Below are positions 16,971 through 49,278 of a DNA stretch of 64,000 bases, piece by piece. A model generated the notes under the pieces. That model had not been told where the DNA came from, ran no database searches, and was given only the letters and a program-made list of their open reading frames with translations. Each line of letters starts with the position of its first letter. Positions within the stretch are counted from its first letter, which is position 1. Source of the stretch: Alphaproteobacteria bacterium (GTDB taxonomy: Bacteria; Pseudomonadota; Alphaproteobacteria; Rs-D84); the NCBI GenBank assembly GCA_031549365.1, contig JAVBPX010000007.1, positions 1 through 64,000 on the forward strand. Reading direction: 5' to 3'. Position numbers and translations under genes: made by a program.

Positions 16971-17159
16971 TTATTTTGCAATACTGGAACGCAGAAAAAA
17001 TATCCCAGCCAACGGAAACACCGTCTGCAATAAATCAATCAAACCTAAATCTCCGACAAAAAACGCACCGATTGCGGAAATAATTCCAACCCCGGTTGTA
17101 ATATATGTCTTTTTACCTTTAAATAACCCACCATTAATAATGCTTAAAATTGTATTCAT
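16971..17159 (-). CDS. Small two-TM holin-like protein
   Basis: 62 aa, FKGKKTY motif, two hydrophobic helices, AAGGAG RBS; next to a cell wall hydrolase. Confidence 0.6.
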   Translation of the reverse strand: MNTILSIINGGLFKGKKTYITTGVGIISAIGAFFVGDLGLIDLLQTVFPLAGIFFLRSSIAK

Positions 17160-17284
17160 AATAACTCCTTATATATAATGTCTAAAACACACCAACCTTT
17201 GACTCTAAAAAAATACCCGTACCAACAAAAGTATTTCAAAATCAATCAAAACGTACTAGTTGGCTTCGCTTTTCATTGATTTTT

Positions 17285-17740: not shown

Positions 17741-18024
17741 AAATTGTCTCCTCTCTCTAATTTTTTTTCAATCCTCAACAAATGATCCGTCAACCTAGTT
17801 TCCAAATCCTTCATAGCGGACATACTTGCGTAATTCCTTGCAACATCTAATTTATAATCAGCCAAATCTTTGCGAATTGCATCTACATGAAACGCATAAT
17901 TCTCGCGTAAACGTTCAACCAAATGTTCGACTGCCGAAATCTGATTTCGAATCCATAAAAAAAAGCCCCCGATCAAGGGAACTTCTACAACCTGTATCCA
18001 CCAGGCCAAATCCATATTCTCCAT
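17737..18024 (-). CDS. Phage-type membrane-anchored coiled-coil protein
   Basis: N-terminal TM then LADYKLDVARNYAS...RLTDHLLRIEKKL; translationally coupled to the hydrolase. Confidence 0.6.
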   Translation of the reverse strand: MENMDLAWWIQVVEVPLIGGFFLWIRNQISAVEHLVERLRENYAFHVDAIRKDLADYKLDVARNYASMSAMKDLETRLTDHLLRIEKKLERGDNL

Positions 18025-29790: not shown

Positions 29791-30879
29791 ATGAAACCAT
29801 TAATCAAACCATCCCCACTAAAACCCGGGGACACAGTCGCCACAGTATCTCTTTCTTGGGGTGGTGCTGGTATATTGCGAGATAGATATGAACAAGGTAA
29901 ACGCCAATTCATGGAAGCATTCGGAGTTAACATCATCGAAATGCCAAATTCATTAAGAACTCCGTCTGAATTATATGAACATCCGGAATTACGCTTGAAC
30001 GATTTAATGGATGCTTTTCAAAACTCGGAAATCAAAGCAATTTTGTGCAATATCGGTGGCGATGACACCATTCGTTTGTTGCGTTTGATGAATGATAAAC
30101 ATTTTGAAATTATGCGCAACAATCCAAAAATATTTATGGGTATGTCAGACACAACCGTTAACCACTTTATGTGTTTAAAGGCTGGAATTTCATCTTTTTA
30201 CAGCCCGGCAACAATGTTCGGATATGCTGAAAATTGCGGCATCCCGGAATTGATAGTGGAAAACACCAAAAAAACATTATTCTCAACCGAACCAATTGGC
30301 GAATTACCACACGCATCAGAATTCATGGTTGATAGGATTGATTGGGAATCTGGTAACGATATTTGTCGCCCACGTATCCCAACCACACCTTGGCGTTTTA
30401 TCCAAGGTGACAAACCAGCAACGGGCCGGTTATTGGGTGGATGCACAGATGTTTTAAATATGTTAAATGGAACACCATTATGGCCGGAAATTGATGAATG
30501 GAACAATACAATTTTATTCTTGGAGAACAGCGAAGAACGCCCATCGCCAGATTATATGTTATATACCCTGCGCTGTTTTGGTGCCCAAGGAATATTGGAT
30601 CGCATCAAAGGAATTATGTTTGCTCGTCCAGGCGGTGAGTTCAAACCGGGCGAAAAATCCGAAAAAGAAGAATGGTTAAAACTTTATCCAAAATTCGATG
30701 ACAAAATTTTAAAAGCATGTCGTGAATATGGGCGCACAGATATTCCAATTGTAACCAATATGGATTTTGGACACACCGTTCCACAATTTATATTACCATA
30801 CGGCGCCATGACCGAGATCGACCCCACAAAGAAAACCATATCAATATTAGAAAGCGCAGTCGATCAAAAGGATAAATAA
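29791..30879 (+). CDS. Peptidase S66 (LD-carboxypeptidase / MccF-like)
   Basis: LKPGDTVATVSLS, IGGDD, FMGMSDTT (Ser), FLENSEE (Glu) and DFGHT (His). Confidence 0.92.
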   Translation: MKPLIKPSPLKPGDTVATVSLSWGGAGILRDRYEQGKRQFMEAFGVNIIEMPNSLRTPSELYEHPELRLNDLMDAFQNSEIKAILCNIGGDDTIRLLRLMNDKHFEIMRNNPKIFMGMSDTTVNHFMCLKAGISSFYSPATMFGYAENCGIPELIVENTKKTLFSTEPIGELPHASEFMVDRIDWESGNDICRPRIPTTPWRFIQGDKPATGRLLGGCTDVLNMLNGTPLWPEIDEWNNTILFLENSEERPSPDYMLYTLRCFGAQGILDRIKGIMFARPGGEFKPGEKSEKEEWLKLYPKFDDKILKACREYGRTDIPIVTNMDFGHTVPQFILPYGAMTEIDPTKKTISILESAVDQKDK

Positions 30880-31838
30880 TGCTCGCAAAAAAATATCTGA
30901 ATAAAATTGTAACTGTAAAAATGGATCGTCCTTTGGGTTCGAAACATCCAAAACATGGGTTTATTTATGAAACAAATTACGGCTTTATCCCAAACACAAT
31001 TTCCGGCGATGGCGAAGAATTGGATGCGTATGTTTTGGGGCCAGATAAACCACTGGATGAATTCACAGGACGCTGTATTGCCATTATCCACAGAACCGAT
31101 GATGACGATGATAAATTAGTGATCGTTCCCGATGGTCTGGATTTGGATGATGAAACAATAGAATCTGAAACCGCATTCCAAGAAAAATGGTTCAAGCATA
31201 TAATTATTCGTGGCGGAGCTTATATTTTTGTCGCTGGTGGTGGCGATCGCGAAGATAGCGCAGAACTTGATAAACACTTCTTCGATTGCATCCCAACAAA
31301 TGGAAAAATTCTTTATTGCCCCGCGGCATTGGATTCGGATAAATATATGGGGGCATTGAAATGGTTCACCGACCTGGTTCGTCATTATCATGAAACAGCA
31401 ATAATAGAAATGCTGACCGAAGATAATGCAACCACAATCAATCTTAACGATTATGACGCAGTATATATTGGTGGTGGAAATACTTATAAACTGATGGACT
31501 TTATTGTAACCAAGGGTATGGACGTAAAATTAAAAGAATATATCAAATCCGGTGGTGTTATTTACGGAGGCAGTGCCGGTGCAATTATATTCGGAAAGTC
31601 AATCGATACAGCGCGTCAGGCAGATGACTCAACTGGATATAACCACACCAAGGGATTAAACCTATTAAACGAAGTCAGTATCGCATGCCATTGGCCGGAA
31701 CACGAAGAGTATGTCCGCCAATTTTCGATTGATAATTTTATGGCGCGAATTTATTGCCTCCCCGAAAATTGCGGAATGATTTTCGATGACCAAGGAGAAT
31801 TATTAATGACCATCGGAAACGGGATAGAGATTTTATAA
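30879..31838 (+). CDS. Inorganic pyrophosphatase-like domain fused to peptidase S51 (PepE-like)
   Basis: N-terminal DRPLGSKHP...NYGFIPNTISGDGEELDAY...DDKL; C-terminal YIGGGNT, GGSAGA and CHW. Confidence 0.85.
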   Translation: MLAKKYLNKIVTVKMDRPLGSKHPKHGFIYETNYGFIPNTISGDGEELDAYVLGPDKPLDEFTGRCIAIIHRTDDDDDKLVIVPDGLDLDDETIESETAFQEKWFKHIIIRGGAYIFVAGGGDREDSAELDKHFFDCIPTNGKILYCPAALDSDKYMGALKWFTDLVRHYHETAIIEMLTEDNATTINLNDYDAVYIGGGNTYKLMDFIVTKGMDVKLKEYIKSGGVIYGGSAGAIIFGKSIDTARQADDSTGYNHTKGLNLLNEVSIACHWPEHEEYVRQFSIDNFMARIYCLPENCGMIFDDQGELLMTIGNGIEIL

Positions 31839-31867
31839 AGATAAAATAACACCATAGAATATATAAA

Positions 31868-32392
31868 ATGACAGATTTTAAAATAAGAAATGCCAAGCCA
31901 GAAGATGCATCGGAAATCGCAAAGGTTATCCAAAGCGCAAGCAACATAGTTTATCGCGGCGTAATGTCGGATGAGCTTTTAAATCAAATGGCCACACCCG
32001 AATATTTAGAAGTTAGTACAGAAAAATTTAAAAATCGCATAGAAGATCAAAACAATGTCTCGCTAGTCGCCGTTGATAGTTCTGGTCGTATTTTGGGGTT
32101 CGTTTATGGCGGTAAAAGCAATGAGCAACTTAAAACAGATTGTGAACTTCATGCTCTCTATGTCCGTCCATCGGCTCAGAGTTCGGGTATTGGTCGAGAA
32201 CTTATGATGCAGTTTGCAAAACAAATGAAAATCCGTGGAGCAAAGACATTCGGTCTAGGCTGCCTCACCGCCAATAAAAGTTATAAATTTTATGAACGGA
32301 TGGGCGGTAAACCAATTTTGGAAACCATAAGCTCACGTGAAAACCTCCCAGAAACGTATTTTGAATATTCAATTGAAAAGTTAATTAACTAA
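31868..32392 (+). CDS. GNAT acetyltransferase
   Basis: IRNAKPEDA, LHALYVRPSAQSSGIGRELM and N..YKFYERMGG. Confidence 0.9.
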   Translation: MTDFKIRNAKPEDASEIAKVIQSASNIVYRGVMSDELLNQMATPEYLEVSTEKFKNRIEDQNNVSLVAVDSSGRILGFVYGGKSNEQLKTDCELHALYVRPSAQSSGIGRELMMQFAKQMKIRGAKTFGLGCLTANKSYKFYERMGGKPILETISSRENLPETYFEYSIEKLIN

Positions 32393-32617
32393 GATATAAG
32401 AAACACCTAAACAGGCGGTTTATTTAAAAACATAGGAAATGCCTAGCTAAAGCATAAAACAACCAACACTCTCATAATACTAATGATTTTACAAAATAAA
32501 CAACTGAAAATTAACAGATTTTAACTGATGCTAGAATATTTCACATATTTTTCAACTTGACTTATTCGTCAAATCTGCATAATAGAATATATAATATTTC
32601 AGCCAAATGAGACGCTT

Positions 32618-33922
32618 ATGAGCAGACACATCGTGATCAGAAAAGAAACATATGGAACTATTGTTTTCTCTCCAGATAAAGCTTGTTTTTATGAAATAAA
32701 AGATACAACCTTAAAAGATTTATTGATCAAAGACCCAAATTTTTTGTCCGCAGTGGAAAAGACGAAATACGCCAATGAGCTTCAAACTCTTGGCGTTTTT
32801 TCTTATCCAGTCCGAATTATTGATAATACAAATAGTAATTCATTTATCCCATTAGAGGCTTATTTTGATTACACATCAAAATGCAACCGAACATGTAGGT
32901 ATTGTTATAACAAAGATTTTATTAACCAAACAACTATGAAACCATCAATTGTTCAAAAAGTTTTCAATGATTTTTATGATCTTGGAATAATGAGAGTTCA
33001 TTTAGCCGGAGGAGAGCCAACGATAGATTATGACGGTATCAAAAACTATATTGAATATGGGAACAAAAAAGGAATGGTCATTTCTATGGCTACAAATGGT
33101 ACTCTTTTGGATGATAAAATGTGCGATCTGCTGACCTCAAATGATTTACTGTCTGTTAGTTTTAGCATTGATTCCGCATCCAAAGAAAAAAATGATGAAC
33201 GCAGAGGTGTTGGAACATTTGATAAATTAATCTCCGGAGTAGAAACATTGGGCAGATATAAAATATTGAATAACAGTTCAGTAGAGATTTGCTTTAAACC
33301 CGTTTATTCCCCAAGCTTTACGAAGCAAGAAGCAATAGATTTAATTGATTTAGCAATAAGTTTAGGTGTTGAAAAAGTTAAATTTGCAAATCCTGAGCGC
33401 TGTTTGTTTCATGAACAAAGATACTATGGAAAGATAAGTTCTGAGTATTATAACACATCTGAAATGCTTCAATCTGTCATTGATGACTATAAACTTAAAA
33501 TCGCATTAACAAACATTACTAATCCCGTATTTTGTAATGCAGATATTGGAATTTTTGAAAATAAAGGATGTATTGGCGCTCAAGAGCTTATAACAATAAA
33601 TCCAGATGGAAGAATTACACCATGTTTAATGAACCACACATTACTGGGTAATTATTATGATTATGAATCTCTATCTCGGTTTCTGGATACATCCAAAGAA
33701 TTAAAAGAATATAGAAAGTCAATAATTACAAAATCTTGTTTCAGTTGCCAATCTTACAAACAATGTCGTGGTGGCTGCCAGGTCAGAAAAATAGTCGAGT
33801 TTGGAAAAATTCAAGGTATTGACCCCCTGTGCCCAATAAAAATGGTTCAACATAAAATAAAACAAACAAATGTAATAAAAAATGAAGCAATCAAAAGAAT
33901 AAACGTTTTTCATTCTCTATAA
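32618..33922 (+). CDS. Radical SAM protein with SPASM domain
   Basis: CNRTCRYC, AGGEP, TNGT, GCIGAQ...PDGRITPC and CFSCQSYKQCRGGC...DPLC. Confidence 0.92.
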   Translation: MSRHIVIRKETYGTIVFSPDKACFYEIKDTTLKDLLIKDPNFLSAVEKTKYANELQTLGVFSYPVRIIDNTNSNSFIPLEAYFDYTSKCNRTCRYCYNKDFINQTTMKPSIVQKVFNDFYDLGIMRVHLAGGEPTIDYDGIKNYIEYGNKKGMVISMATNGTLLDDKMCDLLTSNDLLSVSFSIDSASKEKNDERRGVGTFDKLISGVETLGRYKILNNSSVEICFKPVYSPSFTKQEAIDLIDLAISLGVEKVKFANPERCLFHEQRYYGKISSEYYNTSEMLQSVIDDYKLKIALTNITNPVFCNADIGIFENKGCIGAQELITINPDGRITPCLMNHTLLGNYYDYESLSRFLDTSKELKEYRKSIITKSCFSCQSYKQCRGGCQVRKIVEFGKIQGIDPLCPIKMVQHKIKQTNVIKNEAIKRINVFHSL

Positions 33923-33931
33923 GGAAACACA

Positions 33932-35236
33932 ATGAAGATTTTTCTCATCAGACATGCTTTATCAGAAGGAAATGTAAATCACATAATTCAAGGAAATGAG
34001 TATGATTATGGAATAAGCCAACAAGGGAAAAACAATCTGAATTCGGTCAAAGAAAATTTAAAAGACAAAGGAATTTCATTCATCCTTCACAGCCCTTCTG
34101 CAAGAACTCTGGAAACAGCAGAATATATTTCCAAAAGTCTGAATATTCCAAAACAATCTGTTTCTGAATTAAGGGAATTTGATTCAGGAGTTTTGGCAGG
34201 ATTAACACATGAACAAGCAAAAAAGGACTTTCCTAAATATTATGATGAATGGATAAAAAGAGGAGATTTAGACTTTATTCCGGGTGCAGAGAAAGGGGAT
34301 AACTTACAAGCAAGATCGATTTATATAGCAAAAATACTCCAACAGTACAAAGATGAAACTATTTTAATAATATCGCACGCTGGGTTTATGAGATCTCTTA
34401 TAAATCTGCTATCATCAAAGGCCAGAATATCGCCTATCAATGTTGAGCATGAATATATCCATGAATTAAATATTGATTTAGATGAACATGAAGAAATAAT
34501 AAAAAATCTTCCAAACAAATCATTATCTAAAGTAAAAACACACGAAAAAACATACGTTATTAAAACACGTAAAAGCACAGAATCCCTACCTGATGTTTTA
34601 TACTATAAGCTATCAGAAGTGGGATTAATTCCAAGATTATGTTTCCTAAAATTAGAACATAATAATTTCACTTCTGTATCTATATGGGAAGATGGATATC
34701 ATTTACACGGAAAACTCGAATACAGCAATTTAATCCGGCTTATAAAAGCAGTAGCGACTTTATTCAATATTATAAATGAAAATAATTATAGTAATATACG
34801 AAAGTTTTCAGACATCGTTAATTGCACTTTATCTAAAAATTTATCTTACTCGGAAGTTTTAAAGATATGCCTTAATAAATTGCCAGTAGAAAACAAAATA
34901 ATTCACTATGATTTACATAGAGACAACATCTTATTTCAAAAAGATTTAATAAAAATTCTTGATGTTGACTCTTTGACTATGGGTAGTAAATTACTGCAAA
35001 TTGGAAGCTTTATCGTATCTTCATTTTTAATAGAAGATTATGATGAAAGTATCATTGATAATGTGTTGTATATCTGGAACTCCGATTATTCAAAAGAAGA
35101 TTTAATCCCGGCTATTATAGCTAAGGCTATCTTGTCATACAATTATTTTGAAAAAAATAAAGATGCTCAAAATAGAGAACATTACTTGCAAAAATATAAT
35201 AGCGTAATAAAACATTTTATAGGAAGTATCACATGA
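33932..35236 (+). CDS. Histidine phosphatase (PGM family) fused to an APH/choline-kinase-like phosphotransferase
   Basis: LIRHALS, SPSARTLETA and ISHAG in the N-terminal half; IIHYDLHRDNILF...ILDVD in the C-terminal half. Confidence 0.85.
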   Translation: MKIFLIRHALSEGNVNHIIQGNEYDYGISQQGKNNLNSVKENLKDKGISFILHSPSARTLETAEYISKSLNIPKQSVSELREFDSGVLAGLTHEQAKKDFPKYYDEWIKRGDLDFIPGAEKGDNLQARSIYIAKILQQYKDETILIISHAGFMRSLINLLSSKARISPINVEHEYIHELNIDLDEHEEIIKNLPNKSLSKVKTHEKTYVIKTRKSTESLPDVLYYKLSEVGLIPRLCFLKLEHNNFTSVSIWEDGYHLHGKLEYSNLIRLIKAVATLFNIINENNYSNIRKFSDIVNCTLSKNLSYSEVLKICLNKLPVENKIIHYDLHRDNILFQKDLIKILDVDSLTMGSKLLQIGSFIVSSFLIEDYDESIIDNVLYIWNSDYSKEDLIPAIIAKAILSYNYFEKNKDAQNREHYLQKYNSVIKHFIGSIT

Positions 35237-36468
35237 AAATTGCAATAGTCTCTTTTTATCATCGATACCAGGAATACCCAACTCAATACAGTTTGGCATC
35301 ACTACGCCTCCATCAATATATTTCCCATCATGGTTTTGATAGTCAAATAGTACCATTTTATCTGGACCAAGATAATATTGATATTGCCATTAAGGAGTTA
35401 AGCGACCAGCTTTCAAAATTTGATATCATCGGGTTATCATCATATCATTGGACAAAGAAATATGTAAAAGAAATTTCATCTTTATTAAAAATTAAAAATA
35501 ATAAATCCCAAGTTATCATAGGTGGACCAGAAGCAGAGAATGTAAACCCAAATGAATGGGAAAATGAAATATTTGTAGTTGGAGAAGGTGAGAACTCACT
35601 AATGCAAACCATCAACTATATAAAACGCGGTAAAAAAGATCTCTTGTTTTTCCAAGAGAATACTAATATTTTTGATAAAAATAACCCTGCAAATGAAAAA
35701 ATTGAAACTGAAATTCCATGTTTTAAAAGCCTATTCTCTGGCCTCTCATTTTATGATAGATCTTTCGCATGGTATGAAACAAATCGCGGATGTAGTTATT
35801 CTTGTGGGTATTGTGGACATAAAACTAGGAATAAAGTTGCCTTCTTTAACGACAAAATTATCGAAGATGAAATCAAACAAATTGGCACTATTGGATTTGA
35901 AAAAGTCTTTGTTATTGACCCTAATTTCGGAGGCAATAAAGAGAAAGGGAAACAAATTTTAAAGAAGTTTCATCAATTTGCACCAGATTCAAAATTAACA
36001 ATATATTTAAGACCCGAATTTATTGATGATGAATACATAAATCTTCTTAAAAAAACAAAATTAGCCGAAGTCCGCATAGGAATTCAAACAATTAATGAAA
36101 ACGTTCCCATGTGGGTTCGTTTCAATTCTATGAAGCATGTTCGACAAGAGCTACCAAAACTTTCACAAAATAACATAGAATGGAAAGCCGAACTAATTGT
36201 TGGTTTGCCAGGGGATAATGTGAATGGGTTGCTTCACAGCATTGATTTTGTTGAAAATTCCCTCAAACCATTTTCTTATATGTGCTATCATCTAACCATT
36301 ATAAAAAATACCAAAATAAACAAACTTGTAAATAACTTTAGTAACCCATTATGGCTAAAAATTGATCAAGACAGAAAAGTCAAAGAAGCATCAACCTACT
36401 CAAGTAATGAACTTCAATTGATGCTAGATATCTCCAAAGAAAAAGTATTAAAATACAACCACCGATAG
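35233..36468 (+). CDS. Cobalamin-binding radical SAM protein
   Basis: B12-binding domain (DIIGLSSYHW, VIIGGPE, VGEGE), ETNRGCSYSCGYC, IGIQT and LIVGLPGD. Confidence 0.9.
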   Translation: MKIAIVSFYHRYQEYPTQYSLASLRLHQYISHHGFDSQIVPFYLDQDNIDIAIKELSDQLSKFDIIGLSSYHWTKKYVKEISSLLKIKNNKSQVIIGGPEAENVNPNEWENEIFVVGEGENSLMQTINYIKRGKKDLLFFQENTNIFDKNNPANEKIETEIPCFKSLFSGLSFYDRSFAWYETNRGCSYSCGYCGHKTRNKVAFFNDKIIEDEIKQIGTIGFEKVFVIDPNFGGNKEKGKQILKKFHQFAPDSKLTIYLRPEFIDDEYINLLKKTKLAEVRIGIQTINENVPMWVRFNSMKHVRQELPKLSQNNIEWKAELIVGLPGDNVNGLLHSIDFVENSLKPFSYMCYHLTIIKNTKINKLVNNFSNPLWLKIDQDRKVKEASTYSSNELQLMLDISKEKVLKYNHR

Positions 36469-36469
36469 A

Positions 36470-38308
36470 TTATTTTAAAAAATCATTCAATCTATCGGCA
36501 ATTTTCTTATCAATCAGATTTTTTTTTAAGGAAACGATTTCATCTATTGGCAAACCTTTAAGACCATTTGCAACAGTCATTATTTTTTCATTCTCAGCTT
36601 TAAGCCAATTTTTTGCCATAGATACAACCTGGTCGATTTTAACCATTCCTTTTTCACCAGTTGATCTTACTTTCCATTCAGCAGAACCCTGTTCCAAAGT
36701 CCGTTGACTAATAACAAACTGCAGAGGAACACCCAATAAGTCTATATCGGCAAACTTTTCACCGGCACTGGTGTTTCTGTCATCCAAGATAACTTCAATG
36801 CCTTCTTTTTGCATTTGTTTATACAAATCATTCGCTTGGTTTTCAATGGTTTTGTCTTCTGATTTTCCTGCCAGTGCAACGATGGATACTTTCCATGGTG
36901 CAATCGATACTGGCCAAATAGGACCACGCTCATCATATCTTGCTTCAACTACACTTGCCATTAATCGTCCAATTCCAATGCCATAGCATCCCATAATGGG
37001 CGTTTGAATCTTTGTATTTTCATCCATATATGACATTTTCATAGATTTGGTATATTTATCACCCAATTGGAATATATTACCAACCTCGATACCTCTGTGA
37101 ACTTTGATTGGGCTTCCACATTTTTGACATAAATCACCATCTTGCACGGATACTAAATCAAACAACTCTGCTGTTGGAATATCTCGCTTGATATTGAAAT
37201 TAGCAAAATGATATCCTTCTTCATTGGCTCCTGTAACAAGGTTCTTTTCTAAAGTCAAACCTTCATCAACAATAACTCTCGCGTTTTTTAATTTATACCC
37301 AGAAGCATATCCAGGGACTACTCCAGAATTATCAAATGCAATATCATCTGCGAATTCGGGCATCGCTTGCAAAATTTTCGACAATTTACTTTCATTTACA
37401 TCTCTGTCGCCACGAATCATAACTACAATAGTTCTTTTGTCCCCATCAACAGGTTTATAAACGACAGTCTTTGCAAAACGATTTGATGGCATTTTTAACA
37501 ATTTTGAAACTTCTTCGATTGTTTCTGCATTTGGTGTATAGATTTTTTCCAATGGCTTTTCTGTGTCATTTTCATTAACTACGGTAATCTTTGAGTTTGC
37601 AACTTCTTTGTTTGCTTTGTAATCGCAGTCTGAGCAAGTGATAATTGTGTCCTCTCCGGATGAGGTTAACAACATGTACTCGTGGGCAACTTTACCACCC
37701 ATCATACCACTGTCTGATTTAATAGCAATGACTTCTGGAATCCCAGCCCTCGCAAAAATACGACTGTATGCAATAGCTGCCCTTGCATAGTAGCCTTCCA
37801 AATCTTCCTGAGAGGTATGGAAAGAATATGCATCTTTCATGGTGAATTCCTTAACTCGGATTAACCCTCCGCGTGGACGAGCTTCGTCCCTGAACTTCTT
37901 CGCGAATTGGTATATTGTAAATGGATAATCTTTATAGCTGGTAGCCTCAGTCCTTGCCAAAGCAACAGCAGTCTCTTCATGAGTCATGGCCAAAACCATG
38001 TCATGTTCGTTTCTGTCTTTGAAACGAGCCAATTCATCATTAATGGCGAAATAACGGCCAGATTCTTCCCAAAGCTCTTTTGGTTGAACCAAAGGCATTT
38101 CAACTTCTTGCCCATCAATATTATTCATCTCTTCACGGACAATAGCTTCTATATTCTTTAAAACCTTTAAACCAGGCAATAATGAAGAAAATATCCCACT
38201 GAAAACAGGACGAACATACCCACCACGAATGAGTAACTCATGGCTTTTTAATTTGGTATCACTTGGCTTTTCTTTATAACGTTTGCCAAGAAGTTGATTT
38301 ATCTTCAT
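36470..38308 (-). CDS. proS: Proline--tRNA ligase (long form with INS editing domain)
   Basis: KFRDEARPRGGLIRVKEFTMKDAYSFH, GIEVGNIFQLG, MGCYGIGIGR and an anticodon-binding domain. Confidence 0.96.
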   Translation of the reverse strand: MKINQLLGKRYKEKPSDTKLKSHELLIRGGYVRPVFSGIFSSLLPGLKVLKNIEAIVREEMNNIDGQEVEMPLVQPKELWEESGRYFAINDELARFKDRNEHDMVLAMTHEETAVALARTEATSYKDYPFTIYQFAKKFRDEARPRGGLIRVKEFTMKDAYSFHTSQEDLEGYYARAAIAYSRIFARAGIPEVIAIKSDSGMMGGKVAHEYMLLTSSGEDTIITCSDCDYKANKEVANSKITVVNENDTEKPLEKIYTPNAETIEEVSKLLKMPSNRFAKTVVYKPVDGDKRTIVVMIRGDRDVNESKLSKILQAMPEFADDIAFDNSGVVPGYASGYKLKNARVIVDEGLTLEKNLVTGANEEGYHFANFNIKRDIPTAELFDLVSVQDGDLCQKCGSPIKVHRGIEVGNIFQLGDKYTKSMKMSYMDENTKIQTPIMGCYGIGIGRLMASVVEARYDERGPIWPVSIAPWKVSIVALAGKSEDKTIENQANDLYKQMQKEGIEVILDDRNTSAGEKFADIDLLGVPLQFVISQRTLEQGSAEWKVRSTGEKGMVKIDQVVSMAKNWLKAENEKIMTVANGLKGLPIDEIVSLKKNLIDKKIADRLNDFLK

Positions 38309-38425
38309 TTCATGCCCTTTTTTTGATGTATTCTAGTCATATTCTACGGCAATTATAAATCTAAATCACGTAAAGTCAACAAAATACAAGTGTTATTAAC
38401 ATAATCCTATAAGCCGAAAACTCAA

Positions 38426-39808
38426 TCACATAAAGAATCGGTATTGATACTTTTGCCTAATAATTTCTGGGACATCCCTAACTACTTGGGCAAAAAGACT
38501 AGAATAGTGCAGCGTTATTGGGATTGACTTATACAAAGTATTATTGTTCCAATCAACCTTGGTCAATCCCAATATTGCGCTACACGTATCATGCCAGCCA
38601 TTTGATCCCAAAAACTTTTTTACAAGTACAGGCCGTGGCATAGGAGTTAAAGCGCCTTCTTTAAAAACAGAACGACCAGAAAGATCAACTGTGCCCTGAA
38701 TCCATAAAAGACATTCATTGTTTTTAAATGGTATATAACAACCACGGTTAATCGGATATCCGTCCGCTTGTTTTGCTGCCCTTATCTTTATTCCTTGCCA
38801 GTCAGTATGCTGTATTTGTATTAACTCTAGTTCAATTCCACTGCCAAGCGCCTTTCTACAACCATTTATTTCATCAGAGGAAAAAGGTATTGTTTTATGT
38901 ATGGTAATTTTTTTTGGTATTTTACCAGAGTGAGTATTTTGATATACCTGCAGACTTCTAGACATAATGTTCATGGTCTCTTGTTCGCTAAGATATGGAT
39001 TTCTGTTATTCTCATCCATTGTAAAGTCGGTAACATCATATGCGATAAATTCAAACCCGATACCCGCGGAGTCAAAAATTTGGCTGCAACATGTTATATA
39101 GCTCGAACCTTCAGACTGTTTATTCATCGCATAACTGAGTCCAACAAAAGCCTCATCATTAGTGGTAACATCTAATTTCCAGGGGATTCCGCCAGCTTTT
39201 GCATAAGTAGCTATGCTTATTCCCCACATAACATTAGCTCGGCAATTTCCACTGGATTTATCGGTAATTATTTGAATAGGCACCCCTAATGGTGCTGCAA
39301 TAGCTTTTATGAAATTATGAAGATCAAAATCAGGCGTTTTAAAAATCCCATGCCATGTATCTGGCAAATAAAGAAATAAAACTTCAAATCTCATCTTTTG
39401 TTGATTTATAGATATCAAAACCTCTTTGAATTTTTGTTTGAAAGAGCATATGTCACCACTCCTGGCAAAAACATCAATCTCAGAATCAAATTCAAAGTTT
39501 AAAGAGCTGTCCAAAACTATTTTGGTTCTGAAAATATTTTCAAAACCTATATAATCTGGATAATATTCTGGTGCATATAATGGTTTGATCGTTGAGGATA
39601 ATTCTGTCATAACTCCAGAAATTTTACCATTTCCACCAATAGGGGTCAGGCTGGCAATACGTATTGTATCTAAATATTTTAAATCCAAACTGTATGGTCC
39701 AAATGCTTTCAAGCCCAAAAGAGGATTTACAGATTTATTGCCGCCAGCAAATACCAATTCAGGTTCTTTAACCTGTGAATATGCAGATAATCTAGAGGTA
39801 GTAGTCAT
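38426..39808 (-). CDS. Short prokaryotic Argonaute (MID-PIWI)
   Basis: EPELVF, GLKAFGPYS, YAKAGGIPWKL, LTKVDWN, PITLHYS and terminal YRFFM; coupled to SIR2-APAZ. Confidence 0.92.
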   Translation of the reverse strand: MTTTSRLSAYSQVKEPELVFAGGNKSVNPLLGLKAFGPYSLDLKYLDTIRIASLTPIGGNGKISGVMTELSSTIKPLYAPEYYPDYIGFENIFRTKIVLDSSLNFEFDSEIDVFARSGDICSFKQKFKEVLISINQQKMRFEVLFLYLPDTWHGIFKTPDFDLHNFIKAIAAPLGVPIQIITDKSSGNCRANVMWGISIATYAKAGGIPWKLDVTTNDEAFVGLSYAMNKQSEGSSYITCCSQIFDSAGIGFEFIAYDVTDFTMDENNRNPYLSEQETMNIMSRSLQVYQNTHSGKIPKKITIHKTIPFSSDEINGCRKALGSGIELELIQIQHTDWQGIKIRAAKQADGYPINRGCYIPFKNNECLLWIQGTVDLSGRSVFKEGALTPMPRPVLVKKFLGSNGWHDTCSAILGLTKVDWNNNTLYKSIPITLHYSSLFAQVVRDVPEIIRQKYQYRFFM

Positions 39809-41508
39809 TACATCTCCCCTTTTGCTGTAAAGGCTGTTATTGGGGAAATTTCAAATTTAATATCGTTGTTTTCACTAAAAACAGGAAAACTAACAGCTTC
39901 CGTAGCGTTGCCAAATATTATTCTCTTCCAAATATCCAAAAGGGTATTTTGCTTGTTGTTATATCTAGTCTTCTTCCGTCCTCTAAGAAATCTAATCTGT
40001 TTTTCTCTTTCCGTTAATGGTTCTATCCATGTTTCAGGTTGTACAACTAACCAAAATACACCGTTTCTAAAATCAATTTTTATTTTTAAGCATTCAGTCC
40101 ATGATGCTGATGGCAACATTGTTCCAGCGATTTGACCTGCAAAAGTTTTTAATTCTGCAAACAAAGGGTCGTTAATGCTTCTCTCTTTTGGTACAATATA
40201 ATATGTATTTCTAATCTTCCTGAAGCTTAAAGGTTTATCTTTACATAAAGCGGTTACCAAGCCTCTATATATAAAATCTTTTAAATAACCATGTTTCACA
40301 ACATCGTCAGGAGAAAATTCAAAATCAGAAATTATACTCGGTTTAGGAAAAACCTTTTTTATTTCCTCTATTGAACCCCAAGCCAAAACGTTATCTTTTT
40401 TTGTCATTATAGCGCAAGTTCGTGCCATTTTGCACTTGTCTTTCAGATCTTTGATGCCTAAAATACTGTTATCTACTATTTGTTTGGCATTTTGTGGTAG
40501 ACCTGTTATTGGAAATGCATTAAGTCTTATTACTGGGAAATTTGTTCCTGGTTGTGGCAACGAAATATTCAAAGGTTGCTCTTCGATCTTTAATTTTTCT
40601 GATAATTCTACCGATTTTCCAGGGACACTAGCCCATATAAAATTCATAAGGCTGTCAAAAGAATCGATCTCTATAATTTCAGCATTAATACCTTTCGATT
40701 TTGCTCTATCAATAAAATCATACACTGACTGTAAACACCTAGATTTATCAGATGCCATCCAAAAAATTCCCTGGGGAAAAGGGTTCACAGTATCCAAGGC
40801 AGAATTTAGCATTCTCATAACATTGTTATCACGGCCACTGTATCCCGCGATTATCAGTCCCATACGTGTAGCAGATGCCAAAAAACATCTTTCTAATTCT
40901 TCACAATTACTGATTAAATCTTCCGATAAGTTTTTTACACTTTGATATCGATAATCGCCATGTAGTTTAACGTAAAAAGGGAAAGAGCTATTATTTATAG
41001 CGTTAATTGCCCCCTCAGCACCTTCTATATTATAAACCTGTAAAGGCTGTCCGATTACATCAGCATATGACCGTTCAAAAATATTATCAAAATTAGTTGT
41101 AAATACCAACCTCGATTTATCCATGTGCACTAATGCAGACAATATTTTAAAACCGATATTCGGGTCAACGTTTTCAGCAATAAGCATCCTATTTAAATAT
41201 TGTCTTTGTAAATTCCGATTATCACCAAACAATAATTCAAAGTAAAAGGAATATTCCTCAATAGAATCTTCAGCAGGAGCGCCCTTAGAATCCAAATAAT
41301 TTTGGATATTTCTCTTTATTGAACTTTCACCTATGTTTAAATCATCTATATTTAGATTTTCTTCAGTGGCATAGTAAATTTTCTTTAAATCCCATGTAAT
41401 ATCCCAAGCGGTAGGTAGCCCGGCAGATCTTGGCGCACCAGCCCCCAATAACCACATAAAATTTGGAGAATAATTGTTAAAATGTGTTAAAAATTCGGAT
41501 ATTTTCAC
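39808..41508 (-). CDS. SIR2-APAZ effector (SPARSA system)
   Basis: LLGAGA, TTNFD, KLHGD and GYSGRD SIR2 motifs; APAZ-type C-terminus (IRLNAFPI...RYN..QNTLLDIW). Confidence 0.9.
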   Translation of the reverse strand: MKISEFLTHFNNYSPNFMWLLGAGAPRSAGLPTAWDITWDLKKIYYATEENLNIDDLNIGESSIKRNIQNYLDSKGAPAEDSIEEYSFYFELLFGDNRNLQRQYLNRMLIAENVDPNIGFKILSALVHMDKSRLVFTTNFDNIFERSYADVIGQPLQVYNIEGAEGAINAINNSSFPFYVKLHGDYRYQSVKNLSEDLISNCEELERCFLASATRMGLIIAGYSGRDNNVMRMLNSALDTVNPFPQGIFWMASDKSRCLQSVYDFIDRAKSKGINAEIIEIDSFDSLMNFIWASVPGKSVELSEKLKIEEQPLNISLPQPGTNFPVIRLNAFPITGLPQNAKQIVDNSILGIKDLKDKCKMARTCAIMTKKDNVLAWGSIEEIKKVFPKPSIISDFEFSPDDVVKHGYLKDFIYRGLVTALCKDKPLSFRKIRNTYYIVPKERSINDPLFAELKTFAGQIAGTMLPSASWTECLKIKIDFRNGVFWLVVQPETWIEPLTEREKQIRFLRGRKKTRYNNKQNTLLDIWKRIIFGNATEAVSFPVFSENNDIKFEISPITAFTAKGEM

Positions 41509-42686: not shown

Positions 42687-44144
42687 TTAATCGATTGGTT
42701 TCAATGCATAGATCATACATTGAGATAAGGCATCAACCTGATCTTTATATTTAGTTCCTGGAAATCCCAGCAACTCTTTTTTAAACTCTGGCCACCATTC
42801 AAGTTCATTTTGAGGGAATAACAATTCACCTCGTTCTATGCAAACACTCACCCCATACAGACGAGATACTTTATCTGTATCAGGTTTTATTGCCTTCATA
42901 TTAAAATGCCATCCACATTGATCCACATCATTATTTAACAATTGTATCAATTGGGTTCCGCTCGCCTTGTCTTCTATTAACATTTCAACGGGGTAACTAG
43001 ATCCCACATTGTATTTCCATACGTTATAAGCTTTCTTTACAAGATCCACTAATTCAGGCATTTCCCATTTGCCTCTATAAACCTCGACCAAATAAAATTT
43101 ATACGCATTTCGCTCTCGAATTTGGGCAACCACACAACAAGCAGAATAAGCATTATTTTCTCCAACCTTACAGGCCGTATCCCAACTGAGGAATATTTTA
43201 TGAATTTTTCGCCCGTCCACCTTTTGCAACTTTTCGATATCAAAATATTTTAACCATTTTTCTTTTACTATGCCACCTTCTGGCGGGCAAGGTTCTTGTT
43301 GATGTTGGGCTTCGAATAGGTATTCGCCTTGGATGTCTTTTATTTCGTTAACCATATCCATATTCTCACGTACAGGGTGTAACAGTTCTCCTCTCATGCG
43401 AACAAAAGATTTTTGAATATTAAAAATGCGATCTTCCCATTTCCACGTTTCATCTTCCGTTGCAATAGTTGGCAACTTTATCAATTTAAACCCAATGTTT
43501 GATTCTAATAAAAATCCGGTCAAATCATCCTGATGCAGGCGTTGCATTATCAGCATAATCTTGCCATTCGTTTTATCATTCAAACGTGTACAAAGAGTTG
43601 ACCCATACCATTCATTTACTTTGTTTCGCTGAGTATCTGACATTGCATCCGATGGTTTCAATGGATCGTCTATTATAATCCAATCCGCACCACGACCGGT
43701 AAGTGTACCACCAATTGATGTGGACATACGTCCACCCCCACGCGTTGTTTCAAAATCATTAACGGAACGTCTGGATTGCTCAATCTTTGTTCTCGGGAAC
43801 AACTCTTGATACCATGGTTGCATCATGACACGCCGACAATCACGGGCAAACTTTTCAGCCAATTCATCATTATAACTGATACAAATAATGTTTGTTTCCG
43901 GATTGTGACCTAGCAAAAAGGCCGGCAATGCCACAGAACAGATTATCGATTTCGTATACCGCGGTGGGATATTAACAATAAGGCGATTATTCTTGCTCTC
44001 TATCATATACATAATTTCATGGCAAATTATATCAATATGCCAATTGTCCAGATATGTATCCGATGACACTTCGCCAAAAACCTTGCGTACAAACTGTTTA
44101 AATTCAGTACGTAAAATTGCATTTAAAATTTGATTTTCATTCAT
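42687..44144 (-). CDS. Phage terminase large subunit (intact)
   Basis: NIPPRYTKS, TGRGADWIIIDDP, MQRLHQDDL, SWDTA, IEDKASG and KDQVDALSQ. Confidence 0.93.
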   Translation of the reverse strand: MNENQILNAILRTEFKQFVRKVFGEVSSDTYLDNWHIDIICHEIMYMIESKNNRLIVNIPPRYTKSIICSVALPAFLLGHNPETNIICISYNDELAEKFARDCRRVMMQPWYQELFPRTKIEQSRRSVNDFETTRGGGRMSTSIGGTLTGRGADWIIIDDPLKPSDAMSDTQRNKVNEWYGSTLCTRLNDKTNGKIMLIMQRLHQDDLTGFLLESNIGFKLIKLPTIATEDETWKWEDRIFNIQKSFVRMRGELLHPVRENMDMVNEIKDIQGEYLFEAQHQQEPCPPEGGIVKEKWLKYFDIEKLQKVDGRKIHKIFLSWDTACKVGENNAYSACCVVAQIRERNAYKFYLVEVYRGKWEMPELVDLVKKAYNVWKYNVGSSYPVEMLIEDKASGTQLIQLLNNDVDQCGWHFNMKAIKPDTDKVSRLYGVSVCIERGELLFPQNELEWWPEFKKELLGFPGTKYKDQVDALSQCMIYALKPID

Positions 44145-44523
44145 TGTCTTCCCCTTCATTTTTTTCTTTATTAAAATAAGCACTCAAAATTTCTTTATCA
44201 TCCGGTGCCATAATGTGATTCTTCACGGCTTCCCGATCAGCATTTTTCTCATCAATTACCAACATATGCGTAAGCAAAGTCTGAATAGCTTTGATGTCTC
44301 CTTTGATGGCCTTGTTCACCGTTTGTAACAAGATCAGTGCCTTTTTGCTAATTTTCACAGTTTTTCCGTCCCGAACAACTTGCGCTTTTTCGGACAACAG
44401 ATCATCTAATAACCTGTATGTATTCTTACTGCCACGTGTTCGGCCTTTGACATTGCCGGATTGACCGGGTTTAAATTGATTTTCTTTGGGTGGTTTCATG
44501 TAACCAACTTCATATTTTTTCAT
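44137..44523 (-). CDS. DUF5681 protein, probable terminase small subunit
   Basis: YEVGYMKPPKENQFKPGQSGNVKGR; overlaps the terL start. Confidence 0.8.
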   Translation of the reverse strand: MKKYEVGYMKPPKENQFKPGQSGNVKGRTRGSKNTYRLLDDLLSEKAQVVRDGKTVKISKKALILLQTVNKAIKGDIKAIQTLLTHMLVIDEKNADREAVKNHIMAPDDKEILSAYFNKEKNEGEDNE

Positions 44524-45827
44524 TGTGTCACCTCTTGCTTTTCGGCCAGTAATTCGGAATATTTTTTACCGTCACTAACACGCACGGCATCAATCGAAAA
44601 CATATCAAAAAACCGCCTGATGGCGGTGTCAACATACAACGGTTCCAATTCTATCCCATAACATATTCGTCTTGATTGCTGCGTGGCAATCAATGTTGAT
44701 CCCGAACCCAGGAAAGAATCCAACACAATATCGCCACGTTTGGTAACGTCCAAAATTGCGTCTTTCAACATCTCGACTGGTTTAACGGTCGGATGTAATT
44801 TAATGTCGTTTTTATGATGACCGAACGAATTCACGCCAGCATAATTCCAAACATTGGTGCGATATCGTCCATGGCGTCCAAGTTCAACATTATTGATGTG
44901 GCTTTCTTTGCCATTACGGAATATAAAACAAAGCTCATGTTGCGACCTATAAAGCGAACCCATACCACCGGACGATTTACACCAAACACACATGTTGATA
45001 GGATTACCGAACACATCGCCACCCGCAGCGGTAATTTCGCGAACGTGCCTCCAGTCGGTGAAGTTGTAGTGTAATGACCCCAGGCGAGAGAACTTAGCAC
45101 ACAATTCAAAATTCTTGCGCAGAAATTCTGTAAATTCATCGGACTTCATCTCACCCGATGCCATAGCAAATTCTTTGTGCTGAATACTGCCAGACCCACA
45201 AACATGTCCAGATATTTTTACGTTATACGGCGGATCTTGCAAAATCATATCTGCACGTTTATCGCCCATCAACTTTTCAAGCGTGTCGGATTCCAAGCTG
45301 TTTCCGCAAATAATTCGATGTTCACCAATTTGCCAAATATCACCGACATTCGTCACGATTTCGTCTTCCGAAATAAACGGAATGGCATTGGCTTTCGGGT
45401 CGGCGTGCTTTTCATCCGGATTCATCAATACATCAATTTCGATATCATCAAACCCGGTAATCGAAATATCAAAATCATCGCATATTGTTTCCAATTCTGA
45501 AATTTCCATCCGCAACAGGTCTTCGTTCCATCCGCCATTCATGCAAATTTTGTTATCGGATAGGCGATACGCTCGCTTCTGTGCGGCCGTCAGATGCGAC
45601 AGGCGTATAGCCGGCACAGTATCCATCCCAATTACCTGTGCCGCAGCCAACCGACCATGGCCAGCAATAATCTCGCCATCTTCGTCAATCAATATCGGAT
45701 TATTAAAACCAAACTCTCGAATTGATGCAGCAATCTGCTGCACCTGTTTTTCCGGATGGTTCTTTGCATTTTTAGCATACGATCGAATTTGATCAATTGC
45801 GACTTGTTCAACTGATAGGTTTTTCAT
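44520..45827 (-). CDS. ParB-like domain plus N4/N6 DNA methyltransferase
   Basis: IREFGFNNPILID..IIAGHGR, DPPY, HPTVKP and DSFLGSGST. Confidence 0.92.
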   Translation of the reverse strand: MKNLSVEQVAIDQIRSYAKNAKNHPEKQVQQIAASIREFGFNNPILIDEDGEIIAGHGRLAAAQVIGMDTVPAIRLSHLTAAQKRAYRLSDNKICMNGGWNEDLLRMEISELETICDDFDISITGFDDIEIDVLMNPDEKHADPKANAIPFISEDEIVTNVGDIWQIGEHRIICGNSLESDTLEKLMGDKRADMILQDPPYNVKISGHVCGSGSIQHKEFAMASGEMKSDEFTEFLRKNFELCAKFSRLGSLHYNFTDWRHVREITAAGGDVFGNPINMCVWCKSSGGMGSLYRSQHELCFIFRNGKESHINNVELGRHGRYRTNVWNYAGVNSFGHHKNDIKLHPTVKPVEMLKDAILDVTKRGDIVLDSFLGSGSTLIATQQSRRICYGIELEPLYVDTAIRRFFDMFSIDAVRVSDGKKYSELLAEKQEVTQ

Positions 45828-45938
45828 TTTATACCTCCTTTTATACTGTTTACAGAGGCCTGCATTTTTAAGCACGCCTCGATAATATACCCTAATTTGA
45901 ATTCACAATGTTAAAATGGCTAAAATTTGACGGTTTCA

Positions 45939-46029: not shown

Positions 46030-47064
46030 ATGGCAGATTTTTCAGAATATAAAAAACTGGGCGAGCCAGATAAAACCGCAAAAAGCGAAATATGGGAAAT
46101 GGCCACTGGTCTGCAAAAAGTCGACGGATTAAAAACATCTGAATATTTGCGAGATTTGGCACGTAAAAACATCGAGGGCAAGCTTTCCATTTACCAAGTC
46201 CAAGAATCTGTGCGTCAGTATTATAAAACTCCAAAAGGAAGGTCAGAGTTTTGGGGTTCAGAGGAAGCAGACCTTGTTTCTGCGCATATAAGCGAAATAC
46301 TCTCAGAACAAACATTTGCTTTCAGTCCTGCGGAATACATCTCTATTCATGGGCGTCTATTTGCAGGTATTTTGGACGACAAAATTACTGGAAAAATTCG
46401 CGATTATAATATAATCAAAGACGAATGGGTATTGGGCGGAGAGTCCGTAAGTTACGCCAGTGCAAACAGTATCGCGACAACATTAGAATACGACTTTGAT
46501 CGTGAAAAGTCTTTTGATTATAAAGAATTGAGTGAACGCGAAATGGCCGAGCATATCGCAAAATTTGTATCTGGAATATGGCAAATTCACGCATTTGGCG
46601 AAGGCAACACACGAACAACAGCCGTATTCATTATAAAATATTTGCGCACACTTGGCTTTGACGTAAATAACGACCCATTTGCCAAACATTCTGATTATTT
46701 CAGAAACGCATTAGTACGTGCAAATTATACCAACATTAAACTTGGTGTTCATGCGACCATAGAATATCTAAATAAGTTTTTTTATAACCTGTTACTGGGT
46801 GAGAAAAATATGCTCCATAATAGTAGTCTGGTTATTATACCTGGCAAAACTAAAGAAAAGACTGCGAAACCAAAGAAAACAAAAGCACGAGATACATTGT
46901 TAATGCTAATCGCTGAAAAGCCGGACATATCAATAGAGGAAATGTCCAAAAAGACAGGTCTTTCCGTCGGTGGCGTGCGGTGGAATATTGATAAATTAAA
47001 ATCCGATGGCGTTATCCATCGTGTAGGTGCCAGAAAATTGGGTCATTGGAAAATATTAAAATAA
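46030..47064 (+). CDS. Fic family protein with N-terminal VbhA-like region and C-terminal HTH
   Basis: HAFGEGNTRTT Fic motif; N-terminal ATGLQKVDGL; C-terminal HTH ending GHWKIL. Confidence 0.9.
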   Translation: MADFSEYKKLGEPDKTAKSEIWEMATGLQKVDGLKTSEYLRDLARKNIEGKLSIYQVQESVRQYYKTPKGRSEFWGSEEADLVSAHISEILSEQTFAFSPAEYISIHGRLFAGILDDKITGKIRDYNIIKDEWVLGGESVSYASANSIATTLEYDFDREKSFDYKELSEREMAEHIAKFVSGIWQIHAFGEGNTRTTAVFIIKYLRTLGFDVNNDPFAKHSDYFRNALVRANYTNIKLGVHATIEYLNKFFYNLLLGEKNMLHNSSLVIIPGKTKEKTAKPKKTKARDTLLMLIAEKPDISIEEMSKKTGLSVGGVRWNIDKLKSDGVIHRVGARKLGHWKILK

Positions 47065-47410: not shown

Positions 47411-47798
47411 ATTATGGTCGCGATATGTACCACATCCATACAAACGGCAAATCCGTGCATTATGGTATTACGTTCGGTGTGAAAATATGAACCTAAAAAT
47501 CGAATCCAAACACATGACAAAGATTAGGAAATATTTGGATAACCCAGAACGATGCACAGACCGCGCATACAAAATAAAATACAGCCTGCACCCGGGAACG
47601 GAAATCACAAAAACATTCCGTGGTTTGGAATTCAAAGTGTTGGTCGCCGATAATGGCGACTTTCTTTATGACGGGAAACGATACAAAACATTATCACCAA
47701 TCGCCAAAGAAATCTGTGGGATAAAAGTATCCGGCCCAGACTTCTTTGGCCTGCGAACAAAAAGGATAAGGAATACAAACAAAACGACAGATGTTTAG
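47340..47798 (+). CDS. DUF2924 protein
   Basis: PGTEITKTFRG...FLYDGKRYKTLSPIAKEICGIKVSGPDFFGL. Confidence 0.85.
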   Translation: MKPKIYLPKTLDELQKLSHEKKSELWSRYVPHPYKRQIRALWYYVRCENMNLKIESKHMTKIRKYLDNPERCTDRAYKIKYSLHPGTEITKTFRGLEFKVLVADNGDFLYDGKRYKTLSPIAKEICGIKVSGPDFFGLRTKRIRNTNKTTDV

Positions 47799-48991: not shown

Positions 48992-49278
48992 AATATTATC
49001 CCTTGTTTTGTTGTTTTATCATATCGAAAGTTTGGTATTTATTCCCTTAAGCGCGAAACTTCCGTATGACAGACAACGCCTAAGGGCAGATATAGTAATA
49101 GTTACCTACATACATCGGCGAAGATGCAACAAAACAAGGTTTAAAAAAGGTTTCATGTGATGACATGATAATTCCTTGGTTTCCGCATCAATATATTCCA
49201 GATTTCCCCAAAAGTCAAGTATTCCATTTGACTTCCCACACAACGTAAGCATTCATTGTGGTAACCAAGGGGGTAAAT

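Follow-up and report, generated by a model that had tools for sequence, protein, structure and literature searches.

A second, bacterial-type prolyl-tRNA synthetase beside a radical-SAM gene trio in a reduced alphaproteobacterium-like genome

Why should a bacterium with a genome of 911 kb hold two prolyl-tRNA synthetases (ProRS), and why should the gene for one of them end a single base pair from an operon of radical-SAM genes? The question arises from a stretch of 64,000 nucleotides of an Alphaproteobacteria bacterium (assembly GCA_031549365.1, contig JAVBPX010000007.1, positions 1 to 64,000), which I will call the window. Its genome, 97.6% complete and with the window as its contig 8, is referred to as G000; other G-numbers denote genomes compared with it, L-numbers loci and P-numbers protein representatives. 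Three genes between positions 32618 and 36468, encoding a SPASM radical-SAM enzyme, a phosphatase-kinase and a cobalamin (B12) radical-SAM enzyme, make up what I will call the trio, or the cassette, and the ProRS gene (36470..38308, reverse strand) converges on them. A first-pass annotation had proposed that the region makes or resists an inhibitor of aminoacyl-tRNA synthetases (aaRS). The genes it named were all present, where it had placed them, in the map of open reading frames (ORFs) and in domain scans, the radical-SAM operon among them, though the kinase half of the middle gene and an extra tyrosyl-tRNA synthetase (TyrRS) had gone unmentioned. The gap of 1 bp that it reported is also real: the TAG stop codon of the B12 gene occupies 36466-36468 and the ProRS stop codon, on the reverse strand, 36470-36472.

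Two prolyl-tRNA synthetases of different types

The synthetase of the window, 612 aa in length, is a second ProRS of the bacterial type (type II) with an INS editing domain. It was assigned to that type by family score (652 bits against NF006625, cut-off 558; 572 against TIGR00409, cut-off 307), catalytic motifs 2 and 3, the anticodon-binding domain and the INS domain (Pfam tRNA_edit, 1e-19). Of 52 columns found near-invariant across 29 housekeeping ProRS it retains 47, motifs 2 and 3 included, and the GC content of its gene is 0.376. Upstream lies a promoter-like site (TTGACT, 16 nt, TATAAT; 38352..38379, reverse strand), a consensus match only, which with 11 of 12 positions is the best between 29300 and 42000. 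The DNA of the window is present in an invertebrate-gut metagenome run, and an RNA library (a metatranscriptome of the same study), in which DNA carry-over is possible, yielded a contig of 1482 nt identical to the ProRS gene over 36632-38113, together with short contigs on the SPASM gene and on an S66 peptidase gene nearby; it covers the trio only sparsely.

A protein search of G000 with the window ProRS gave only weak second matches; a family search showed a full type-I (archaeal/eukaryote-like) ProRS on contig 14 (G000:C14:166811-168256; TIGR00408, 452.5 bits, cut-off 437). This enzyme retains all 112 columns that are invariant in 16 other type-I enzymes. Copies 54-72% identical to it occur in 21 of the 40 relatives sampled from the same order, including 17 of the 24 that belong to the same family, and it is the vertically inherited gene. 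G000 holds two apparently intact ProRS of different types. The first-pass annotation had described the window ProRS as an extra one, to be checked by finding a separate core proS, and the intact gene on contig 14 is that gene; it rules out the window ProRS as the only proS of the genome.

The window enzyme is an oddity among its relatives. All of the 40 same-order genomes are small (0.5-1.1 Mb), and 18 of them encode a short ProRS of 405-467 aa that has no INS domain and is 37-49% identical to the window ProRS. None has the 612-aa INS-containing type, which is therefore unique among the 41 genomes of the order: it is an added, foreign copy. Among 401 genomes sampled from the class, only three, all of one other family (f112), have the type, at 53-55% identity, and these three lack the trio. 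Two ProRS genes can also be neighbors: a type-I and a short type-II gene are adjacent in one relative (G011:C13:7764-10464; loci L073, L041 and L056), and a C. difficile record in a plasmid collection has two ProRS genes annotated side by side.

A recurrent pairing

The genes of the trio have a GC content of 0.29-0.32 (0.23-0.27 at third codon positions), as against 0.38-0.44 in nearby genes of native type, and no SPASM homologue was found among the 40 relatives. The trio thus has the marks of a horizontally acquired, low-GC cassette. Flanking repeats were limited to 10-mers at chance level. The cassette is rare. A word-indexed search with the phosphatase-kinase returned 13 proteins. When 1.84 billion cluster representatives were searched exhaustively by profile, 105 matched at E <= 1e-30, and about 60 of these are full length. 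Genome and metagenome contigs, when scanned, led to 22 loci. A survey of 399 Clostridia genomes for the phosphatase-kinase fusion found one, an already known host, and the trio was absent from the viral contigs and from the plasmid collection searched.

By tblastn and Pfam, 13 distinct loci have all three genes together, arranged in three different orders: the window, L029, L030/L031 (near-identical), L032, L034, L035/L105 (identical), L036, L100, L101, L102, L104, L106 and L108. L099, L103 and L107 are fragments, L033 is a remnant, and L109-L112 were dropped as weak kinase-only matches. The hosts are recorded as Clostridia, one metagenome-assembled genome (MAG) of Bacilli and two archaeal MAGs, all of them uncultured, and the trio would appear to pass among Clostridia, Bacilli, archaea and the reduced, alphaproteobacterium-like genome of the window.

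A bacterial-type ProRS gene lies no more than 1.5 kb from a cassette gene in six of the 13 loci (the window, L029, L035/L105, L100, L106 and L108), or six of the eight bacterial loci that are informative, and also in the remnant L033. There is no ProRS in L031 or L032 despite ample flanks, nor downstream of the trio in L036, whose host genome (G045) has no type II ProRS; L034, L101, L102 and L104 lie on contigs too short for a verdict. The recurring linkage by which the first-pass annotation proposed to check its idea is therefore real, and beyond chance, for ProRS, which adjoins a homologous trio in five other distinct loci besides the remnant, and absent for the S66 peptidase and GNAT genes that it had counted in. 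With the linkage recurring and a second proS present, that proposal is unrefuted so far as proS is concerned.

In a tree of SPASM enzymes, all ProRS-linked cases fall in the two bacterial clades, B (the window, L108, L036, L035 and L107) and C (L106, L029, L100 and L030/31), and the subtree of linked ProRS splits in the same way. L032, the only judgeable locus of the archaeal-like clade, has no adjacent ProRS. The ProRS gene is co-directional with the cassette in L035, L100, L106 and L108. In L100 it lies between tRNA-Asp/tRNA-Phe genes and the trio, and so inside the island, if those tRNA genes are taken as the integration site. A type-I housekeeping ProRS was present elsewhere in each of the five Firmicute hosts tested (G041-G045; 560-616 bits); the cassette-linked enzyme is the sole type-II ProRS of G041, G042 and G043, and G044, like G045, has no type II. 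In bacterial hosts with a type-I enzyme, the cassette is usually joined to a bacterial-type ProRS.

What kind of ProRS is it? Linked copies of both kinds, short and INS-containing, retain the catalytic motifs (44-48 of the 52 columns) and the anticodon-binding domain and are full synthetases. In a tree of 36 sequences, the six linked short ProRS form one clade (support 100), and the window ProRS falls outside it. The window thus repeats the pairing, but its ProRS has another ancestry. That ProRS and the other linked copies are not orthologues, so a second ProRS was recruited here independently, and since its nearest kin reside in the trio-less genomes of f112, two separate transfers ended 1 bp apart.

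The short type occurs sporadically (in 5 of the 399 Clostridia sampled and in 9 of 121 genomes from the order of G043), and more than 120 clusters are 67-80% identical to the ProRS of L035. In 12 cassette-free genomes with this type, no trio genes were found near it; four of the neighborhoods were scanned, and the genes around it there were housekeeping or unrelated ones (ScpB-ProRS-RuvA, for example). Nine of the 12 showed no type-I ProRS. The linked short ProRS is thus an ordinary enzyme of the bacterial kind that type-I hosts keep as a second copy; a special divergent paralogue is ruled out by its wide occurrence and by its being, in most cassette-free genomes that have it, the only ProRS. 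The nearest named ProRS, a Subdoligranulum record, has no trio nearby. A haloarchaeal trio host (G965) has a bacterial-type short ProRS (G965:C7:25052-26218; L164:9553-10722) on a 36.7-kb contig whose GC content, 0.67, resembles the 0.64 of the trio contig; the search for bacterial-type ProRS listed no type-I-like match there, the type-I model not having been applied.

Taken with the recurrence across distinct loci, a functional tie of some kind between trio and ProRS seems to me likely. The tie is not an expansion of the genetic code of the pyrrolysine kind, which is ruled out by the lack of a tRNA gene beside the trio: the only tRNA genes near trio or ProRS are those for Asp and Phe in L100 and for Gly in L034, none of them adjoining.

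The enzymes of the trio and readings of the pairing

The first gene (32618..33922, forward strand; GC 0.319) encodes a SPASM radical-SAM enzyme of 434 aa (Pfam Radical_SAM, Fer4_12 and SPASM) with orthologues in 14 other loci at 29-55% identity. Its N-terminus is a conserved domain of about 80 aa with a sequence pattern like that of the recognition element (RRE) of peptides synthesized ribosomally and modified after translation (RiPPs). The closest families, by NCBIfam and by sequence matches to the PDB, are peptide maturases (PapB, PqqE, MftC, DynA, CteB and SuiB; PqqE, CteB and SuiB in the PDB), and the enzyme scores under every NCBIfam maturase cut-off, the top scores being 95 and 93 bits against 400 and 340.

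The second gene (33932..35236, forward strand; GC 0.294) encodes a fusion of a histidine phosphatase (residues 1-173; His_Phos_1, 1.6e-32) with an APH/protein-kinase-like kinase (residues ~190-434), the kinase half of which bears PF01636 APH in homologues. In a PDB profile search the N-terminal half led to phosphoserine phosphatase and PGM and the C-terminal half to APH(2''). Among 13 sequences, E82 and H149 are invariant in the phosphatase half and K211, D327, N332 and D344 in the kinase half. The third gene (35233..36468, forward strand; GC 0.317) encodes a radical-SAM enzyme of 411 aa with a cobalamin-binding domain (B12-binding and Radical_SAM), a putative methyltransferase whose PDB matches are TokK and CysS. 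One protein, P0140 (957 aa), is a natural fusion of a B12 enzyme, 40% identical to that of the window over 419 aa, with a phosphatase-kinase, which links the two functionally. Another, P0191 (1161 aa), joins a fragment of a class I synthetase to four His_Phos_1 repeats.

A promoter-like site (32566..32595, forward strand; a consensus match only, 10 of 12) precedes the trio. At its far end, no terminator-like site was seen in 36402-36472, and transcripts that ran on past the trio would lie antisense to ProRS. In Firmicute loci (L029, L030/31, L033, L035, L100, L103, L106 and L108) a PTP-like phosphatase (PF13350) follows the trio, and NUDIX, MazG-like, methyltransferase, metallophosphatase or HAD genes are occasional neighbors. 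The B12 gene of L030 (6555-8062) and L031 (5694-7201), loci without ProRS, is split over three frames at the same places and is probably a pseudogene.

No published description of the cassette was found in the literature (supplementary files were outside the scope), nor any paper linking prolyl-tRNA synthetase, radical SAM and self-resistance. Its sole trace in databases is the likeness of the B12 enzyme to a PADLOC candidate, PDC-M51A (in the window, E 7.9e-42 over the full length). No description of PDC-M51 turned up, and the PADLOC preprint on embedded defenses is silent on radical SAM, PDC-M, B12 and cobalamin.

The reading I favor, as a tentative one that may well prove wrong, is that the trio is a tailoring pathway whose product interferes with type-I ProRS, and that the linked ProRS provides immunity by bypassing the target. 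The B12 enzyme would probably be a C-methylase, and the SPASM enzyme would carry out a radical oxidation or form a cross-link. The cassette would in this way make a small molecule, or convert it between phosphorylated and free forms, and that molecule would block type-I ProRS or compete with proline on it; the adjoining bacterial-type ProRS, being insensitive, would keep tRNA-Pro charged. I infer all three essentials: the small-molecule product, ProRS as its target and the insensitivity of the second enzyme. The reading has in its favor that it accounts for two features. Bacterial-type ProRS that are not orthologous would serve equally well, because immunity by bypass needs only some such enzyme, and hosts that already charge tRNA-Pro would have cause to gain another ProRS.

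The precedent lies in antibiotic producers. According to the parts of an aaRS review that treat self-resistance (PMC9437257), the producers of albomycin, mupirocin and indolmycin each have an insensitive second synthetase that is evolutionarily distinct (SerRS2, IleRS2 and TrpRS2, respectively); ProRS does not figure among the cases in Table 1 of that review. The trio with its ProRS fits this pattern, because here too a pathway is repeatedly joined to a spare copy of a different kind: the second synthetase is distinct from the housekeeping one and kept with biosynthetic genes, as in the producers covered there (PMC9437257). However, the biosynthetic genes are unlike theirs, the linked copy is an ordinary ProRS rather than a member of a special resistant lineage, and its insensitivity is only putative.

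Several observations weigh against this reading. The assembled contigs of two hosts contain an intact trio but show no bacterial-type ProRS (G045, with L036, and the archaeal G964, with L032), these hosts being MAGs of unstated completeness, and the four loci on short contigs are mute. No exporter, adenylating enzyme or recognizable scaffold-building enzyme is conserved in the loci. The SPASM enzyme resembles peptide maturases, yet no conserved precursor ORF was found. Both product and target are putative throughout. The linked ProRS lack an evident resistance signature, the few differences in motif 2 occurring also in some housekeeping enzymes. Finally, the window ProRS differs in GC content (0.376) from the trio, and the island in which it lies is one of foreign cargo, an extra TyrRS included, so that in G000 the adjacency could be a matter of chance.

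That last alternative, in which the trio landed beside a spare synthetase in a cargo-collecting island and has no functional tie with it in the window, I consider unlikely. The island does hold TyrRS, SPARSA, phage and recombinase genes, and the ProRS has its own promoter-like site and differs from the trio both in ancestry and in GC content (0.376 against ~0.31). But conserved genes are often richer in GC than accessory ones, which leaves joint selection possible, the same synthetase accompanies the trio in five other distinct loci, and only ProRS and TyrRS look duplicated (four Pfam families, hits identified by length). A role of the linked ProRS as a working part of the pathway, supplying Pro-tRNA or prolyl-adenylate to the product or modified prolyl to a protein, is also rather unlikely, if somewhat less so. 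The linked copies keep what such a donor would use, the catalytic motifs and the anticodon-binding domain; four of them are co-directional with their cassettes; SerRS in valanimycin and PoxA on elongation factor P (EF-P) are precedents; and copies and paralogues of aaRS serve biosynthesis and protein modification in the cases the review describes (PMC9437257). Yet no tRNA-dependent transferase domain (Fem, CDPS, LanB or PEARL) was recognized in any locus, there is no dedicated tRNA, the host's own ProRS could supply Pro-tRNA, the position is filled by non-orthologous types of ProRS, and in the archaeal-like clade the sole judgeable locus, L032, does without. Both the choice of non-orthologous enzymes and the gain of a second ProRS are left unexplained by a donor role. 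Distinctly unlikely, to my mind, is an anti-phage or stress system in which the trio makes a modified nucleotide or signal, its level set by the phosphatase-kinase, with ProRS as an accessory. PDC-M51A matches the B12 enzyme in all four loci scanned (L029, L032 and L035 besides the window, E 1e-36 to 1e-44), the trio lies near SPARSA in the window and near a type I restriction-modification system in L032, NUDIX, MazG-like, metallophosphatase and HAD genes flank several loci, and the pairing of phosphatase with kinase recalls the bifunctional 6-phosphofructo-2-kinase/fructose-2,6-bisphosphatase (PFK-2/FBPase-2). The remaining cassette genes, however, match no PDC-M51 component and no other PADLOC model in those four loci, the trio has not turned up in viral contigs, and the second ProRS would go unexplained. 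The SPASM enzyme matches pVip viperin models over ~105-175 of 257-262 positions, in the radical-SAM core only, short of a full-length viperin, and scores 68 bits against NF038283 (viperin) where the cut-off is 180.

Still less probable is that the trio matures a RiPP or modifies a protein by radical cross-linking, C-methylation and phosphorylation. Its attraction lies in the kinship of the SPASM enzyme with peptide maturases and in the RRE-like N-terminal domain. However, every family score is far under cut-off, and neither 15 loci with their surroundings nor the intergenic gaps of 14 yielded a conserved small ORF that might be a precursor, though short precursors can escape such a scan. The least probable reading, which I regard as very doubtful indeed, is the full picture drawn in the first-pass annotation, in which three genes to the left of the trio and the ProRS form layered resistance to an aminoacyl-nucleotide made by the operon. 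They encode an S66 peptidase of the MccF clade (29791..30879), a partial pyrophosphatase-like N-terminal domain (residues 28-103) fused to Peptidase_S51 (residues 117-305; 30879..31838) and a generic GNAT acetyltransferase (31868..32392), all on the forward strand, as neighbors outside the cassette. The comparison of the first with MccF was sound as a matter of sequence likeness: its closest solved relatives are B. anthracis BA3275, a "MccC family protein" (E 5.5e-98), and MccF (E ~1e-20), with LdcA-type carboxypeptidases ranking lower. Co-transcription of the S66 gene and the S51 fusion is probable, since the former runs into the start of the latter. However, neither S66 nor GNAT has a homologue in the 22 other loci searched, the three genes have a native-like GC content (0.39-0.40, as the surrounding window), and relatives that do not have the trio carry the S66 peptidase and the pyrophosphatase-like domain, each by itself. 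The GNAT bears no specific likeness to MccE or RimL, and the earlier remark that no MccB-like adenylase is visible was confirmed, in that no ThiF/MccB-like domain was found among the window ORFs scanned (18 and 37 ORFs). The three genes may be a separate resistance or recycling unit.

Returning to interference with type-I ProRS, a particular version of it can be imagined, though I think it quite improbable: that the product is a halofuginone-like inhibitor of eukaryote-type ProRS, aimed at a eukaryotic host or at neighbors with type-I enzymes. The reduced, probably host-associated bacterium would survive only by way of the bacterial-type ProRS beside the pathway, which it would need because its native ProRS is eukaryote-like. 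If this were true, the trio would represent a new natural class of ProRS inhibitors, and the same rule would hold in gut Firmicutes. ProRS is a validated drug target, through halofuginone and antiparasitic programs, and a natural inhibitor that separates eukaryote-like from bacterial ProRS would be useful. A pathway kept with a spare copy of its likely target is, moreover, the signature sought by target-directed genome mining, and immunity by bypass, if that is what the pairing provides, would explain two ProRS in a 0.9-Mb genome. Whichever reading is right, two radical-SAM enzymes and a phosphatase-kinase fusion make an undescribed enzyme set that has crossed between domains.

Known systems share parts of this set. 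In the oxetanocin A pathway, the B12 radical-SAM enzyme OxsB works with the phosphohydrolase OxsA. That pathway, and prokaryotic viperins with kinases, resemble the trio in that, on mobile DNA, radical-SAM enzymes go together with others by which phosphate is added or removed. In the trio, though, there are two radical-SAM enzymes, the APH-type kinase forms one protein with a histidine phosphatase, a ProRS is linked, and a nucleotide substrate is only putative. PFK-2/FBPase-2 likewise joins a kinase and a His_Phos_1 phosphatase in one polypeptide, although in the reverse domain order, and the kinase of the trio has an APH/protein-kinase fold. EpmB is the radical-SAM aminomutase of EF-P beta-lysylation. 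There an aaRS-family gene (PoxA/EpmA) is clustered with a radical-SAM enzyme, as here, but PoxA, in the account the review gives of it (PMC9437257), has no anticodon-binding domain, whereas the linked ProRS are full synthetases. ProRSx of Streptomyces is, in the section of the same review devoted to it (PMC9437257), a duplicated bacterial ProRS with a special role, and it differs in having its own tRNA-ProA, no tRNA gene adjoining trio or ProRS here. Microcin C immunity shares with the window an S66 peptidase nearer to MccF-type than to LdcA-type structures; the window has no MccA/MccB-like genes, its GNAT is not of the MccE/RimL kind, and the genes are unlinked to the trio elsewhere.

Neighboring genes and the surrounding island

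The leftward genes have histories of their own. The pyrophosphatase-like domain stands alone in G006, G007, G010 and G022, in open frames of ~120-244 aa at 60-76% identity; G001 encodes the S51 part separately (37%), and only in G000 was the fusion found. An S51-like gene in the metagenome contig L108 (764-1324), 35% identical to the S51 part in the window and 7 kb upstream of the trio, is the only hint that any of the leftward genes is tied to the trio.

No riboswitch or T-box was found at Rfam thresholds in 15 loci or in the window between 26 and 50 kb, the sole match being a sub-threshold GcvB. The second extra synthetase, the TyrRS (47795-48991, reverse strand; TIGR00234, 254 bits), is 30% identical to the native TyrRS (G000:C3:7922-9010). 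The TyrRS of relatives is of the native type, 26-31% identical to that of the window, with the exception of G028 (54%), and copies in family f112 are 29-42% identical to it. ProRS and TyrRS are the only apparent duplicates among the synthetases of G000 (by four Pfam families, with single hits assigned by length).

The closest named matches of the TypA protein are from Alphaproteobacteria (61%), and the rest of the window, by domain scans and PADLOC, is a mixture: VirB11/VirD4, an autotransporter, T7-like phage remnants, recombinases and a SPARSA-type short prokaryotic Argonaute (pAgo) system. The SPARSA-type pair (38426-41508, reverse strand) consists of a short pAgo (PADLOC pAgo_I, E 8e-156) and a SIR2-APAZ protein (E 1e-156); with a GC content of 0.34-0.36, it lies immediately upstream of the window ProRS on the same strand. 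Phage remnants at 6300-17800 include a T7-like capsid, a capsid assembly protein, a nozzle and pieces of terminase, and others, at 42687-45875, comprise a second terminase, DUF5681 and a ParB-methylase. A Fic-HTH gene follows (46030-47064), and beyond it lie DUF2924 and a serine recombinase (49258-50778).

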